Shown here piece after piece: positions 1,677 through 6,750 of a stretch of DNA of 6,750 nucleotides. This DNA is from a virus (Duplodnaviria; Heunggongvirae; Uroviricota; Caudoviricetes). The translations under genes and the position numbers were made by a program. The notes under the pieces are model-generated. The model did no database searches. It saw nothing but the letters and a program-made list of their open reading frames with translations, and had not been told where the DNA came from. The stretch lies in the IMG/VR virus record IMGVR_UViG_2734482533_000011; one strand, given 5' to 3'. The first letter of the stretch is position 1, and each line of letters starts with the position of its first letter.

Positions 1677-2039
1677 GGGGCTGATTCTGGATTCGACGGG
1701 ATTTGCGAAACCCAAGGTGCATGCCGAGGGGCGGTTGGCCTCGTAAAAAGCCGCAAAAAATAGTCGCAAACGACGAAAACTACGCTTTAGCAGCTTAATA
1801 ACCTGCTTAGAGCCCTCTCTCCCTAGCCTCCGCTCTTAGGACGGGGATCAAGAGAGGTCAAACCCAAAAGAGATCGCGTGGAAGCCCTGCCTGGGGTTGA
1901 AGCGTTAAAACTTAATCAGGCTAGTTTGTTAGTGGCGTGTCCGTCCGCAGCTGGCAAGCGAATGTAAAGACTGACTAAGCATGTAGTACCGAGGATGTAG
2001 GAATTTCGGACGCGGGTTCAACTCCCGCCAGCTCCACCA
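1677..2039 (+). ncRNA. ssrA: tmRNA (SsrA, 10Sa RNA), 363 nt mature form
   Basis: Starts GGGGCTGATTCTGGATTCGACGGG (tRNA-like acceptor 5' half) and ends GGTTCAACTCCCGCCAGCTCCACCA (T-arm plus CCA). It contains the resume codon and tag reading frame. Length is exactly 363 nt. Confidence 0.97.
1766..1798 (+). other. tmRNA tag-peptide reading frame (ANDENYALAA + TAA)
   Basis: GCA AAC GAC GAA AAC TAC GCT TTA GCA GCT TAA read directly from the sequence. The Escherichia-type tag (N at position 5) points to Escherichia/Shigella rather than Salmonella. Confidence 0.9.
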
Positions 2040-2237: not shown

Positions 2238-2702
2238 TTACGTAACATCAAACGCTCTAATTGTTCCCAAATCCTCCAGACCACTCAGCTCCTCTTTCAT
2301 TTCACGCTGACGGCGATAAATCTCATCGTTGCGATCGACCTGCGCCTGCACCATTGCTGCCGCCAGTTCTTCCAGTTCCGGCATCGACAGTTTCACCTGC
2401 TGATTATCGGCATCATTCCATTCAAACGTGAACGGCTTCGCCTCCTGTTCTGTGCGCCATGCTTCAATTTCCTGACGTCTGGCCTCTCTGGCCGCTTCCA
2501 GCATTTCTGGTGTCACAGTGAATGGGGCTATCTCACCCCATTTGCCACTTTGCAGTTCCTGCCAGATTCGCTGACCCGTCGGTGCGACATCATCAGCGGT
2601 GGCTGTGTAGGGGACTGCCTGGTCCCTGTCGTCAAAAAAAACGTCACAGTCTACTGCGCCACTTTCGGTATAACGGGGATTAATGATTTTTTTAATTTCC
2701 AC
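2238..2702 (-). CDS. Putative tail-fibre assembly/chaperone-like protein partnered with the Stf-like fibre (atypical, family not recognised), about 154 aa
   Basis: ORF immediately downstream of the Stf-like gene. A GTG at 2702..2700 is preceded by GAGGAA with about 6-nt spacing and lies 10 nt after the stf TGA stop; the ORF-track ATG at 2762 would overlap stf by 50 nt. Acidic, helix-rich sequence (…FTVTPEMLEAAREARRQEIEAWRTEQEA…) in the position lambda tfa occupies after stf, but the C-terminus does not match the classical Tfa signature I remember. Confidence 0.6.
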   Translation of the reverse strand: MEIKKIINPRYTESGAVDCDVFFDDRDQAVPYTATADDVAPTGQRIWQELQSGKWGEIAPFTVTPEMLEAAREARRQEIEAWRTEQEAKPFTFEWNDADNQQVKLSMPELEELAAAMVQAQVDRNDEIYRRQREMKEELSGLEDLGTIRAFDVT

Positions 2703-2712
2703 GGTGCATTCC

Positions 2713-3981
2713 TCACGATGTGCGAATAAAAAGCCCGGGCATTGCGCCAGAGACATGAGCATCCGGCACCCCGGACAGGGCGCAATATGACCCCGGTAAT
2801 GAATGCTCTGAACATCCCGTAATGAAAAATTGTGGGGATGCTATATACGTTCCGGTGGGAGTACTGGGCACTGAAATCCCCACCGGTCCCAGTCGTGAGC
2901 CTCTGTATGACTGCCCCCTGACAAGTCTGATGACTTTATCACCGTCAGCTTCTCCCTGGTACGCAGCAATAATCAGCCCGCCAATGTCAGGGTCTCCCCA
3001 TCTGTTGCAGACAGAGCTCGCCACGATTCTGTAAATAATATCTTCTGTGGTTATATTTATTTTCACCCAGCCAGTCAGTCTGGATATGGGCCAGTAGCAG
3101 TAGCGGGTGTGATAAATGGGGCCGTTAATGCCGTAAAAAGTAAGGGATTTGGCTCTGTACCTCGGTTCTGTTGTCTCAGGGCGTGCATCAGTCCACCGGA
3201 TGCTGAGCACCCCTTCAAACCGTGTGTCGGGTATGATGATGTCGTAGGGGCCAGCAACGGAATATTCACCTGGCAGCGCATTCCTTACCCAGGCCAGGAA
3301 ATCACTCTTAGTGTCAAAACGGATAACATCTTCAGGCAGAAAAGCACACCCAAAGCCGAATGCGCCGGGTATCGCCAGACGGCCTTTTGTCCGGTCGTAA
3401 ATGTCGCTCTGTGCTTCCATCGTGGCCGCACTTTTCAGCCCCAGATTATCCCGGGACTTCTGTTGTGCCTTTTCGCCTGCTGCTGCGATTTCAGACAGAT
3501 GGTTAGCCGTTTTCAGAGTGCCGGTCAGCGCAGCATCAATGTCATTTTTGGCCTGCTCTGCTGCGCGGGCATAACCTGCGGCTGCCGCCACATCCTGCGC
3601 CGTCTGCTGTGCGTTTCCGGCTGCGGCCCCGGCGCTCTGCTGCGCCTGCGCCACCATTTCCTCAAAGCGTTTGACGACATCCGGTTTCAGGTCGCCCTCA
3701 TCAGGAGCAATCAGAAAGTCATTCAGCGTGCCGGGCTTTGAGTCGTCGTATACAGCAATGTCGCCAACACAGTACTCGTCGCGCCAGTCCCGTTTCAGAT
3801 ACACGCAATATTTTCCGACCTGTGCCTCAAACGAATATTCACCGTTATTTCCGGTCACTACATCAGCCCTGGTACGCATCACCACTTCTGAGGTGTTTAC
3901 ACGGGATTTCAGAATAATCTGGCATCCGGACATGGGGATGCCTGCGCCATCAGTCAGCGCACCTGATATCACTACAGACAT
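2713..3981 (-). CDS. Side tail fibre protein, lambda Stf-like N-terminal domain with a divergent C-terminal receptor-binding region, 422 aa
   Basis: N-terminus MSVVISGALTDGAGIPMSGCQIILKSRVNTSEVV…YDDSKPGTLNDFLIAPDEGDLKPDVVKRFEEMV parallels lambda Stf (MAVKISGVLKDGTGKPVQNCTIQLKARRNSTTVV…YEDSQPGTLNDFLCAMTEDDARPEVLRRLELMV), followed by an Ala/Gln-rich shaft segment. The C-terminal ~230 aa are not recognisable to me. Confidence 0.85.
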   Translation of the reverse strand: MSVVISGALTDGAGIPMSGCQIILKSRVNTSEVVMRTRADVVTGNNGEYSFEAQVGKYCVYLKRDWRDEYCVGDIAVYDDSKPGTLNDFLIAPDEGDLKPDVVKRFEEMVAQAQQSAGAAAGNAQQTAQDVAAAAGYARAAEQAKNDIDAALTGTLKTANHLSEIAAAGEKAQQKSRDNLGLKSAATMEAQSDIYDRTKGRLAIPGAFGFGCAFLPEDVIRFDTKSDFLAWVRNALPGEYSVAGPYDIIIPDTRFEGVLSIRWTDARPETTEPRYRAKSLTFYGINGPIYHTRYCYWPISRLTGWVKINITTEDIIYRIVASSVCNRWGDPDIGGLIIAAYQGEADGDKVIRLVRGQSYRGSRLGPVGISVPSTPTGTYIASPQFFITGCSEHSLPGSYCALSGVPDAHVSGAMPGLFIRTS

Positions 3982-4004
3982 AGTTTTTCTCGCGATAAAT
4001 TAAA

Positions 4005-4550
4005 TCAGGAAGAACCTTCCGGAGAGACGGACCATTCAATGGCGTTATATGAGGATTTATCAGTGATGGTGCTGAAATCCATCGCCTGCAGCGATTTCGC
4101 GTAAATACGGTACGCTTTCAGTTTTTCCCGGTCTTCGTCGCTGATTAGCCCCAGCAGCAGGTCTTCTTCCCATTCCCCTGTCCGGGCACTGACCTGAGCC
4201 AGAAGGGCATCACGCTCATCTTCCGCTTTGAGTCTGTAGTCAAAGACAAATTCATCATTGCGGTAAAACCAGTAACCCGGCGCGGTAATGCGGCGGTTGG
4301 CGGTAATATCAGGAACTTCAATAACACTGGCGTTACGGGGTTCAATGCCTGTCACATCCTTACCGACCCACACCACGCGCCCGTCTCCGGTGTAAACCAT
4401 TTTTATGGTGTCACTGGCAAAGTTCTTCTGTTCTTCATACCAGTTTTTGCCGTCTTCCGAAAAAAGCCAGGTGACATCATACTGTTTTGTCAGCTGATAT
4501 TATTCCGCGGTTTTCGGATTACCTGCCGTAATATTTTTTAAATGCAACAT
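4005..4550 (-). pseudogene. Tail-fibre assembly protein (Tfa, Caudovirales TAP family) interrupted by an in-frame TAA at 4502..4500
   Basis: ATG at 4550..4548 (2 nt after the fibre-gene stop) opens MLHLKNITAGNPKTAE, then TAA, then the same frame continues YQLTKQYDVTWLFSEDGKNWYEEQKNFASDTIK-MVYTG…VIEVPDITANRR… to a stop at 4005. The N-terminal and central motifs match Tfa/TfaE-type chaperones as I recall them. The ORF track only reports the 3' part (4005..4400). Confidence 0.7.
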
Positions 4551-4552
4551 TG

Positions 4553-5593
4553 TTAAATACTCGCTACGTTATACCAGGTGCCATTAATCAGTTTTTGCAG
4601 CGGTCGGTAATACACGCCGTTGACGTTATCCGCTGAGTTACGGCCGGTATCCGATATCGATATCCCTGACAGCCCGTGTCCCGAAGGTGAGCGAAATGTC
4701 CACGAAACGGTGTTACTGCCGGGGGGGTAATACATTTCATAACCATACCGCACATCCTGCACGCCACCATTTCGCTGCTGGTAACGGGCATCAAAGTTTC
4801 CGTAGTCTGACGGTGTTACCCGTCCTGTAACGTTTACAGCTTTATTACTCTGGATACTGCCACTCTGAAAACGCAACACATGCACGCTATTGGCATAAAC
4901 ATCCAGCAGGCCATCACCATTCTGTTTGAATCCGGTGTCATTATCACCAAGAACAATTGAATTCCCCCCCAGGGCGTTCTGAACGCCGATACCCAGCGCA
5001 CCATTGACCTGCGAACCACCGCCAACAGACACTTTATGCGACATGGATATTTCACCCGTCCGCAGATTAATGGTGAACGGGCGCAGGGGACCAATATCGC
5101 CATTTTCCCCCTGACCTTCACTGGTGGGAATAAGGTGCAGGCACTCTTCCGAACGACGAAAAATCAGGCCAAAAGCTTCGTTGAAAATCCTCAGCGCATT
5201 AACACCACGGATTTTCAGCTCTCCGGTCATGGTGTCGCCATCACGCTGAACGGCATTTTTTGCCTTATCCACCGTGGGTTTTAATCCGAGGTTTTCAACA
5301 GCCTCATCCCTGTCTTCCACATCCGAAAGGTTATTTTTTATCAGCAATGCCTCTTCGTTAATTGCACCGCCCACCAGCAATAATATAGCCTTATATAGCT
5401 GGTCGTGTTCTTCTTTATTCAGTTCTATCCCGGCCTTCTCAATGACACCACAGATTTCCTCCTGAATGGCATTCCACATGGCACTGTTCAGCCAGGTAGC
5501 AAGACGTCCTGTGCGAAGATTTCCGTCAGTAAATCCGTTCTTACCCGGACCAAACTTATCTTTTACCGCAGTCAGCGTATCAATCCTGTGCAT
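4553..5593 (-). CDS. Tail fibre protein, Mu S / P2 gpH-type C-terminal receptor-binding region, about 346 aa
   Basis: C-terminal segment …NALGGNSIVLGDNDTGFKQNGDGLLDVYANS…YGNFDARY…YRPLQKLINGTWYNVASI closely parallels the P2 gpH / Mu S-type fibre C-terminus as I remember it. Probable start is the ATG at 5593 (GAGGA 5 nt upstream); the ORF-track start at 5605 lacks an SD. Overlaps the upstream gene stop. Confidence 0.85.
   Translation of the reverse strand: MHRIDTLTAVKDKFGPGKNGFTDGNLRTGRLATWLNSAMWNAIQEEICGVIEKAGIELNKEEHDQLYKAILLLVGGAINEEALLIKNNLSDVEDRDEAVENLGLKPTVDKAKNAVQRDGDTMTGELKIRGVNALRIFNEAFGLIFRRSEECLHLIPTSEGQGENGDIGPLRPFTINLRTGEISMSHKVSVGGGSQVNGALGIGVQNALGGNSIVLGDNDTGFKQNGDGLLDVYANSVHVLRFQSGSIQSNKAVNVTGRVTPSDYGNFDARYQQRNGGVQDVRYGYEMYYPPGSNTVSWTFRSPSGHGLSGISISDTGRNSADNVNGVYYRPLQKLINGTWYNVASI
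5278..5303 (-). other. gix/hix-like recombination half-site inside the tail-fibre gene (possible relic crossover site)
   Basis: Minus strand reads CTGTTGAAAACC-TC-GGATTAAAACCC. The left arm and central TC resemble Hin/Gin/Pin sites (hixL TTCTTGAAAACC, gix core AAAACCTCGG) as I recall them; the right arm is a poor match. Lies about 100 codons into the fibre gene. Confidence 0.3.
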
Positions 5594-6170
5594 CTTCATC
5601 CTCATCTGGATAGGAAAATAAAACGACGGTGTGTGACGGACATAATTTATTAATCACGCACTCCGCAACCGTATCCCCCCACGTCCGGATCGGTGTGTTG
5701 CAGGCGTCCGTGCATGTCTGCCACTGAGCACCGGCATCCATCGGCAACGTCACACGCCAGAAATAACGCCAGCGATCTCCCCATTCCGGATCGGGGCTTG
5801 CATCCAAGTGCTGGAACTGTTCGATCGTTACGCCGGTATATCCCAGCGCCTCAAGCTGATCCAGGAAGAACTGCTCATTTATGCCACCAGCCACATTGGC
5901 TTTTGCTTCAAGACGTTGCTGACGCTGGCGTAATGTCTGGGTTCCGACAGGGGAACAGGAATCAGGTAAACCATACAATTCTTCATAACGTTCAATCAGC
6001 TCTGTGGACTGACCGGGATCGATTTCAATCACCAGTTCATCAGCCCGCTGGTGAACACGCACAAGCGATGGTGCCAGACCGTCAAGTACACCGTCGGTAT
6101 CTGACCATGCAGGCCCCGGCGGCATCAGTCCGTACAGCAGCTTTGTATAATCATCCTGTAACGAATCCAT
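5580..6170 (-). CDS. Phage tail/baseplate-associated protein, DUF2313 family (YmfQ / Mu gp48-like), 196 aa
   Basis: 196-aa ORF sited between the baseplate J-like gene and the tail fibre gene, the conserved position of Mu gp48 / e14 YmfQ-type genes. Its ATG overlaps the upstream stop (TAATG), indicating translational coupling. Confidence 0.8.
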   Translation of the reverse strand: MDSLQDDYTKLLYGLMPPGPAWSDTDGVLDGLAPSLVRVHQRADELVIEIDPGQSTELIERYEELYGLPDSCSPVGTQTLRQRQQRLEAKANVAGGINEQFFLDQLEALGYTGVTIEQFQHLDASPDPEWGDRWRYFWRVTLPMDAGAQWQTCTDACNTPIRTWGDTVAECVINKLCPSHTVVLFSYPDEDEDAQD

Positions 6171-6682
6171 TATTTACTCCTTGCCGGGTCATAAGCCTGC
6201 CAGGTGATCTCGCCGAGCACCGGAAGCTCGGTCTCCCCCAGGTCAATATCCGATGAAGGGACGATTAACCGGTGGGCCACTTCACCAGCAGACAAACTGA
6301 TGGCCTCACTGATTCTGGACAGATACATACGCCCCTCTGGCACACCATCCCGTAACATCAGTGCATTCAGCTCTGCTTTTATTGCAGTCCTGATCTGCGG
6401 TGTGTCTTTCGATAATGCAATCGTCATCGGGATGACTTTTTCTGTGGCACCGAATACATACAATCCGCTTCCGGCAACAGGTGCCAGAGGAAGGATGTGG
6501 TCCCTGACTGCGTTAATCACGCTTTCATCCGGGGCCGGGCGTTCCGGATCGTTTGTCGCCACCATCACGCCAACCGTTCCAGTGCCTTTCCAGTGTCTGA
6601 AAGTCCATGCACGGTTAATACCCTGAACTTCTTTCGCCCAGATAACATAATCAGGGTCTGCGCCCCCGGTGATGCTGCCAAC
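6170..6682 (-). CDS. Baseplate J-like protein (Mu gp47 / P2 gpJ family), C-terminal portion; the 5' part appears disrupted
   Basis: The frame is open from 6682 down to the stop at 6170 and encodes …GADPDYVIWAKEVQGINRAWTF…VMVATNDPERP…, reminiscent of the central and C-terminal regions of baseplate J proteins. An in-frame TAA sits at 6685..6683 and the other two minus-strand frames are also blocked between about 6651 and 6693, so the full-length gene is not intact in this window. The ORF track starts it at GTG 6568. Confidence 0.65.
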   Translation of the reverse strand, partial: VGSITGGADPDYVIWAKEVQGINRAWTFRHWKGTGTVGVMVATNDPERPAPDESVINAVRDHILPLAPVAGSGLYVFGATEKVIPMTIALSKDTPQIRTAIKAELNALMLRDGVPEGRMYLSRISEAISLSAGEVAHRLIVPSSDIDLGETELPVLGEITWQAYDPARSK

Positions 6683-6750
6683 TTACTGATTTAGTGTATG
6701 ATGGTGTTTTTGAGGTGCTCCAGTGGCTTCTGTTTCTATCAGCTGTCCCT

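Follow-up and report, generated by a model that had tools for sequence, protein, structure and literature searches.

The Stx2e-converting phage phiP27 (NC_003356) carries, proximal to its attachment site, the genes L52–L57, which encode a baseplate J protein, a gp48-like protein, a fibre, a tail fibre assembly protein (tfa), a second fibre with an Stf-type N-domain (StfN) and a DUF4376 protein. Here we analyse the tail-fibre region of a stretch of 6,750 nucleotides, the IMG/VR virus record IMGVR_UViG_2734482533_000011 (Caudoviricetes), which is referred to in its whole length as the window and contains homologues of these six genes in the same order and strand arrangement. Parts of this set have counterparts in other described systems. 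In common with the window, Mu S/U and e14 StfP/TfaP have baseplate proteins of the J/gp47 and gp48 families, a first fibre with a similar anchor and distal part, and a U/U′-type chaperone, and in e14 the invertase Pin inverts the distal part of the fibre together with the chaperone, whereas the phiP27 type adds another fibre with an anchor of its own. The collar of Ur-lambda is made up of twelve Stf N-domains around the junction between gpV, the last tube ring, and gpM; this collar bears four fibres, which accelerate adsorption 10–30-fold and are nonessential (PMC12617516). In the contractile-tailed Vibrio phage XM1, six gp40 trimers bind the neck proteins gp4 and gp5 via a homologous N-domain (PMC10457771). 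DUF4376 proteins have been shown experimentally to be required as fibre chaperones in Alteromonas V22 and Campylobacter CJIE1.

Among phages, phiP27 is the best match to the window, with identities of 96% for J (covering L52 residues 196–360), 98% for the gp48-like protein (L53), 84% for the first fibre (83.5% unrounded, L54), 75% for tfa (L55), 45% for StfN and 61% for the DUF4376 protein (L57). Identity to the E. coli K-12 chromosome, at 99.8%, ends exactly at window position 2039, the 3′ end of ssrA (1677–2039, plus strand; predicted by ARAGORN as a transfer-messenger RNA with the tag ANDENYALAA), which marks the boundary between chromosome and prophage. The sequence to the right of 2039 is therefore an inserted element, and its genes all lie on the minus strand. 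At its far end we find the 3′ part of the baseplate J/gp47 gene (165 codons at 6170–6667, minus strand; Pfam Baseplate_J), followed by a baseplate wedge gene of the Mu Gp48/YmfQ family (5580–6170, minus strand; PF10076, expectation value (E) 2e-25) whose product shows 26% identity to Mu gp48 and 56% to e14 YmfQ. In the best reading of the region, a phiP27-like temperate myovirus is integrated at the 3′ end of ssrA, and the window holds the attachment-site-proximal end of its late (tail) operon.

A sequence-only reading of this DNA had described two tandem, co-oriented cassettes, each made up of a fibre gene and a chaperone gene, and all four genes (between 2238 and 5593) were confirmed on the minus strand. 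The same reading had named, as what would overturn its interpretation, a well-described phage lineage with just this arrangement, and such a lineage exists: the exact order is found in phiP27 L52–L57, in E. coli C311 and in many other prophages. C311 harbours a complete prophage at ssrA in which the same six genes are followed by genes for a Mu-like baseplate, tape measure, tube, sheath and HK97-type head. The junction between tfa and the StfN gene, searched for with a 499-bp probe of which at least 80% had to be covered, occurs in 107 of 5,426 complete E. coli genomes (about 2%), and the two genes are annotated everywhere as ‘tail fiber assembly protein’ and then ‘prophage tail fiber N-terminal domain-containing protein’. 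A second fibre of 421 residues, 98% identical to that of the window, is encoded in FDAARGOS_944 at a different chromosomal site, and all four fibre and chaperone proteins of the window fall within existing PHROG and Pfam families. The tandem layout is a known trait of the lineage, fairly common in prophages and not unusual; the phiP27 genome itself was sequenced in 2002. In several E. coli genomes (H122–H128) the DUF4376 gene directly follows the chaperone gene and only about the first 40 nucleotides of the StfN gene match, which suggests a deletion or replacement of the StfN fibre gene there. The similarly named ‘Traversvirus P27’ (PMC12502783), a short-tailed Stx phage, is a different phage and not relevant to phiP27.

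The first cassette (4005–5593) was proposed from the letters alone to be a fibre of the Mu-S/P2-H type with its Tfa, and database searches bear this out. The primary baseplate fibre (346 residues; 4553–5593, minus strand) has an N-terminus of the Mu-S/e14-StfP type and a distal part resembling Mu S, P2 H and gp37. Its match in the PDB is the Mu tail fibre S (5yvq, E 4e-25), and residues 30–97 additionally match the Mu S/S′ construct 8ju3 (E 6e-9). Alignment with Mu S by blastp yields three segments, with both the anchor and the distal part being Mu-S-like, while the N-terminal 65 residues are 58% identical to e14 StfP and the full-length protein belongs to phrog_6859. The adjoining tail fibre assembly gene is of the Mu U/U′ type (4005–4550, minus strand; Pfam Caudo_TAP, E 7e-21) and shows 49% identity to Mu U′ and 40% to Mu U. 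In intact relatives the N-terminus of the primary fibre would plug into the Mu-like baseplate formed by J/gp47 and gp48/YmfQ, and the fibre would be folded by its U/U′-type Tfa.

The second cassette begins after a spacer of 23 nucleotides between the tfa stop codon and the StfN start codon (3982–4004, minus strand; read directly from the sequence). Its fibre, a protein of 422 residues (2713–3981, minus strand), consists of an Stf-type collar N-domain (approximately residues 1–110; 3652–3981), a helical shaft (approximately residues 101–179; 3445–3681) and a tip of about 235 residues that belongs to no named family (residues 188–422; 2716–3420), all on the minus strand. The proposal that this protein has an Stf-like N-terminus proved correct: residues 1–131 match PF08400 (phage_tail_N) with E 2.4e-63, residues 1–121 are 43% identical to lambda orf-401, the N-terminus of Stf, and the PDB entry for the collar domain of Ur-lambda Stf (9e7m) matches with E 4.5e-17. 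An AlphaFold2 (AF2) model of the N-domain, with a predicted local distance difference test score (pLDDT) of 73–86 and a lower value (59) for residues 31–40, superposes on 9e7m with a template modelling (TM) score of 0.88 and a deviation of 1.6 Å. XM1 gp40 (7kjk) is also recovered, both by sequence (E 1e-6) and by Foldseek (E 2.7e-7, TM 0.64). As a whole the protein belongs to phrog_2636 (E 2e-205), and its 45% identity to the phiP27 homologue is accompanied by a difference in length (422 versus 490 residues). The tip found no Pfam match and, searched either as a single sequence or as a 15-sequence profile, no match in the PDB. An antisense open reading frame of 210 codons lies inside the StfN gene (3109–3741, plus strand) and is open in relatives as well (for instance 7241–7873, minus strand, in L080 and L085; labels such as L007 and L016 denote relatives from the IMG/VR scan described below, as opposed to the phiP27 genes L52–L57); it probably reflects codon composition rather than a gene.

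As the sequence-only reading had anticipated, the chaperone of the second cassette differs from that of the first. It is a DUF4376 tail-fibre chaperone (2238–2702, minus strand; Pfam DUF4376, E 8e-9) of 154 residues when counted from a GTG start. The open reading frame spans 2238–2762, and the likely start is the GTG at 2702, which lies behind a GAGGAA motif and 10 nucleotides downstream of the StfN stop codon. A full-length relative of the protein belongs to phrog_1141 (E 8e-88). The cassette resembles the systems of V22 gp27 and of the CJIE1 H-fibre partner in that the gene right behind the fibre gene codes for a small protein whose C-terminal domain is DUF4376; the N-terminal half of the window protein, in contrast, is specific to the E. 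coli/Shigella family represented by phrog_1141.

The comparison with Ur-lambda is informative in both directions. Ur-lambda Stf shares with the StfN fibre the N-terminal collar domain (43–46% identity, PF08400) and likewise is an accessory fibre whose gene, followed by that of a chaperone, closes the tail operon. However, the tip of the window protein is not gp37-like, its chaperone is a DUF4376 protein and not Tfa, and its shaft is much shorter; neither the tip nor the chaperone gave a blastp match to lambda orf-314 or Tfa. Only about 110 residues of the second fibre are lambda-like. The earlier suggestion that a lambdoid stf-tfa module had been grafted onto a Mu/P2-like baseplate cluster therefore has to be divided: the module is not lambda stf-tfa, whereas a graft in the evolutionary sense is supported by the occurrence of StfN with DUF4376 behind at least five tail types, as set out below.

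Two fibre modules next to each other raise the possibility that the cassettes are chosen alternatively, by DNA inversion or another switch, as in the Mu G, P1 C and e14 P segments. Such a switch would have a precedent close at hand, as J, gp48 and the N-terminus of the first fibre in the window share 56–58% identity with JayE, YmfQ and the 65 N-terminal residues of StfP from e14, where Pin inverts part of the fibre locus. However, both cassettes of the window lie on the same strand, and neither the window nor phiP27 nor the C311 prophage contains an invertase gene. No flanking inverted repeats were found in the region, where the best pairs are 14–27 nucleotides long with 73–89% complementarity and are scattered. 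Moreover, each fibre has its own N-terminal anchor, of the Mu-S/e14-StfP type in one and of the Stf collar type in the other, instead of a shared constant part. The contrast to invertible systems that had been drawn from the letters, including the separate anchors, is thus upheld; we reject the invertible segment and regard any switch between the cassettes as extremely improbable. As e14 and the window share a baseplate family, one family occurs with two arrangements: unlike Mu and e14, which carry an inverted alternative cassette, the window holds its second specificity in a separate, co-oriented fibre with its own anchor.

In order to follow the second cassette beyond phiP27, the IMG/VR collection was scanned with the N-domain, which returned 168 relatives, and the best 80 loci were analysed. 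Nearly all loci show the first fibre gene, the chaperone gene, 23 nucleotides, the StfN gene and then the DUF4376 gene (for the spacing, position 6977 is the end of tfa and 7001 the start of StfN in the IMG/VR loci). The baseplate genes upstream differ: among these best 80 of the 168, 39 loci have a baseplate of the type found in phage vB_Apl-pPE4 (pPE4), 18 one of the Mu/phiP27 type and 3 a lambda J-Lom-Stf arrangement. Loci of the pPE4 type have a different J, a 208-residue protein and another fibre N-terminus; some others have a J together with DUF2612 upstream of StfN (L080, L085), and L060 has P2 J, Tail_P2_I and a P2 H N-domain there. The StfN and DUF4376 pair consequently occurs behind at least five tail types, namely Mu/phiP27, pPE4-type, J with DUF2612, P2 and lambda. 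N-domains that are 100% identical are found in Mu-type, pPE4-type and P2-type backgrounds, and the N-domain does not sort by tail type.

The wider collection of phage genomes gives a sharper picture of this N-domain. Relatives occur in 311 records, nearly all of them from lambdoid or other siphoviruses at less than 60% identity, and identity above 80% is reached only by phiP27 (two records), vB_Apl-pPE4 and one other record; the N-domain of the window therefore belongs to a distinct subclade. Between phiP27 and pPE4 themselves, tblastx comparison, in which long, high-identity segments alone were interpreted, revealed no meaningful similarity in head, neck, sheath, tube, tape measure or baseplate. 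The two phages share only lysis genes and a block comprising the distal part of the first fibre, tfa, StfN and DUF4376. Taken together, the gene neighbourhoods show that the pair of StfN and DUF4376, often with the neighbouring tfa, is a grafted, portable unit. The pPE4 record (L087; PP818812.1, ‘Actinobacillus phage vB_Apl-pPE4’) contains recT, exodeoxyribonuclease VIII, dicA, ydaT and kil resembling those of E. coli Rac, and its DNA is about 87% identical to the fibre region of the window; its host label Actinobacillus for these reasons looks doubtful.

Within the unit, the parts of the StfN fibre evolve very differently. The N-domain has a mean identity of 91%, with a median ratio of non-synonymous to synonymous substitution rates (dN/dS) of 0.10 at a median dS of 0.51 (823 sequence pairs), and is under purifying selection. 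The tip of about 235 residues forms the extreme C-terminus of nearly all subclade members and can be aligned end to end at 27–100% identity (mean 44%), with tips staying in frame and at full length. Intact StfN proteins range from 421 to 1047 residues owing to a variable shaft, and the window protein is among the shortest. Two Shigella proteins, P0005 and P0027, have a shaft and tip as in the 422-residue fibre with different N-domains, one of them lambda-like, MAVKISGVLKDGAGKPV, and the other starting MPQLKGVIKTPTGEPLGG; exchange thus affects the N-domains in addition to the tips.

The same distribution bears on whether the second fibre is assembled by myoviruses at all. The cassette could be a passenger that recombined into them via the tfa or fibre-tip genes of co-resident prophages, stays unassembled there and is functional only in lambdoid siphoviruses, where the gpV/gpM collar site is available. 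Consistent with this, the cassette also occurs downstream of lambda-type J-Lom-Stf-Tfa genes (L016, L046, L079), unrelated baseplates precede identical N-domains, the recombinant block of phiP27 and pPE4 starts within the first fibre gene, and the copy in the window as well as others are decaying (truncated StfN of 125–304 residues in L046, L077–L079, L081 and L084). On the other hand, the subclade stands overwhelmingly behind contractile-tail baseplates (at least 60 of the best 80 loci, against 3 with lambda J), truncation affects two of the three lambdoid copies, strong purifying selection acts on the N-domain at dS of about 0.5, tips are widely diversified yet in frame and full length, and a homologous N-domain is used by the myovirus XM1. 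In view of the selection, the tip diversity, the bias towards contractile tails and the precedents for DUF4376, a working accessory fibre fits better than dead cargo, and we consider the passenger explanation unlikely. In the three lambdoid loci, a resident Stf-Tfa precedes the phiP27-type StfN and DUF4376, which places two StfN-type fibres in tandem; two collar-domain fibres would there compete for one collar site.

A further possibility is a branched fibre, in which StfN docks on the first fibre or on retained Tfa, comparable to the complexes of G7C, CBA120 and DT57C. The mobile block of phiP27 and pPE4 joins the distal part of the first fibre and tfa with StfN and DUF4376, the 23-nucleotide junction is retained in nearly all loci, and Mu Tfa remains bound to its fibre, all of which would suit a physical partnership between the two cassettes. 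Against it, the domain binds hexameric tail or neck rings and not fibres in both solved cases. In addition, the upstream chaperone is lambda-type in L051, L056, L060, L063 and L065 and only 44% identical in L029, and the tip of the first fibre also differs in those loci, yet the N-domain is 86–90% identical. A branched fibre is accordingly a rather remote prospect.

The copy in the window carries three lesions. First, an insertion element interrupts gene J: the terminal 83 bp of IS1 (6668–6750, strand not assigned), which match the ends of IS1 copies in P1, SfIV and other records at 100% identity, directly adjoin the J fragment. In the near-identical locus L007 this is a simple insertion, with the baseplate cluster continuing beyond it; L007 covers the element up to the baseplate cluster, and the sheath and tube genes present in C311 and phiP27 would lie beyond IS1 in the window. 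Second, codon 17 of tfa has changed from CAA to TAA (Q17*; window 4502–4500, minus strand), for which reason the first chaperone gene is a pseudogene in which only a frame of 131 residues (4005–4400) is open. The nonsense codon is common to L007–L009, and the close relatives L010 and L012 have CAA. Third, 99 bp (33 codons) are missing in frame from the DUF4376 gene, with the junction at approximately 2414/2415, when compared with L007 and all other relatives. This deletion inside the domain removes 33 of its residues and explains the partial Pfam match, which covers profile positions 47–96 only; the alignments to phiP27 L57 and to the FDAARGOS_944 homologue (80% identity) each show a gap of about 32 residues. 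Both fibre genes are intact. With IS1 in J, a stop codon in tfa and a deletion in DUF4376, the copy is non-functional, and a virion with two fibre types, one of the two outcomes proposed by the sequence-only reading, cannot apply to it, although it is plausible for intact relatives.

We therefore ask what the intact relatives build. The explanation that we favour, and consider reasonably probable, is that the locus represents the end of a phiP27-like tail operon encoding two fibres with their own chaperones, and that intact relatives assemble virions with both. On gene content, these relatives probably carry two fibre types: next to the primary fibre on the baseplate, an accessory fibre would be formed by the Stf-type collar domain, a short coiled coil and the tip of about 235 residues, with the DUF4376 protein as its chaperone, and might speed or widen adsorption as Stf does for Ur-lambda.

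Several observations weigh against this explanation. A search of the literature returned no experiment and no virion proteome with an L56-type protein in phiP27-like particles, nor any imaging or structure of such a virion. Identity of the N-domain across unrelated tails could equally mean that it rides along without assembling. Co-variation between the tip and DUF4376 is weak (rho 0.16–0.25) and was not used as evidence, as the pairs are non-independent and some DUF4376 sequences are shortened by automatic start-codon choice. The AF2 model of the whole StfN fibre has a mean pLDDT of 52 and is reliable only at residues 1–92 and approximately 220–310; owing to this, fold matches outside residues 1–92 were ignored. 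A broad protein search returned mostly partial, near-identical Shigella and E. coli entries and four divergent ones, so that the alignment was too shallow for a good model. Finally, only chance matches were obtained when the tail terminator and head-closure proteins of the phiP27-like prophage, the product of the pPE4 sheath-adjacent gene and pPE4 J were compared by sequence with the PDB.

Where such an accessory fibre would dock can be narrowed down to some extent. In a contractile tail the sheath covers the tube, and hence a junction of the Ur-lambda type; unlike Ur-lambda, the phage type of the window thus has no exposed gpV/gpM junction. Docking on wedge proteins is unlikely, because identical N-domains occur behind unrelated baseplates. 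A candidate site would be a ring that is exposed, for example the neck, by comparison with XM1 gp40, which like the StfN fibre belongs to a contractile-tailed phage and has an immunoglobulin-like N-domain (residues 1–100) homologous to the Stf collar, and which provides the only solved location of this domain type in a myovirus. The distal part of gp40, in contrast, is unrelated to the window fibre, and the neck and baseplate proteins of XM1 have no detectable sequence similarity to those of phiP27-like and pPE4 phages. As the neck proteins have no sequence match to solved structures, docking at the neck would be an analogy only. Searches of the literature on PF08400/phage_tail_N and on phiP27 tail fibres brought up no report of a second fibre on myoviruses. 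Tentatively, and with more doubt than confidence, we hypothesise that StfN is a ‘plug-in’ accessory fibre whose collar domain of about 100 residues docks on a structurally conserved ring, such as a neck or tube-fold hexamer, of many otherwise unrelated tails, from Mu-like, P2-like and pPE4-like ones to those with J and DUF2612 and lambda-like ones. If so, any of these phages could acquire a second receptor specificity through one recombination event at the tail-operon end, with no need to adapt to the baseplate.

The remaining features of the window concern its chromosomal flank. The left third is chromosomal and contains yfjF/ratA on the minus strand and smpB (980–1462). In K-12, CP4-57 occupies the same point (2039/2040), and ssrA is therefore an attachment site for the phiP27-like prophage type too; phiP27 itself differs in using another attachment site and in carrying stx2e, as well as in not being inactivated like the copy in the window. 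A hairpin followed by a run of T lies at approximately 2158–2193, between ssrA and the last phage gene. The database proteins nearest to those of the window come from Shigella sonnei, S. flexneri, S. boydii, S. dysenteriae and E. coli, and the carrier of the prophage is probably a Shigella or E. coli genome.

The window itself matters little, as its fibre region is inactivated and sequences of this kind entered the databases with the phiP27 genome. The broader pattern has a modest relevance to host-range engineering and prophage annotation: one conserved adaptor domain, kept by purifying selection, is combined with highly diversified tips behind five or more tail architectures. If the N-domain assembles on all of these tails, it would be a universal anchor by which a second receptor specificity could be added to phages or tailocins, and the structural question would then be where a lambda-type collar domain has its seat on a contractile tail.

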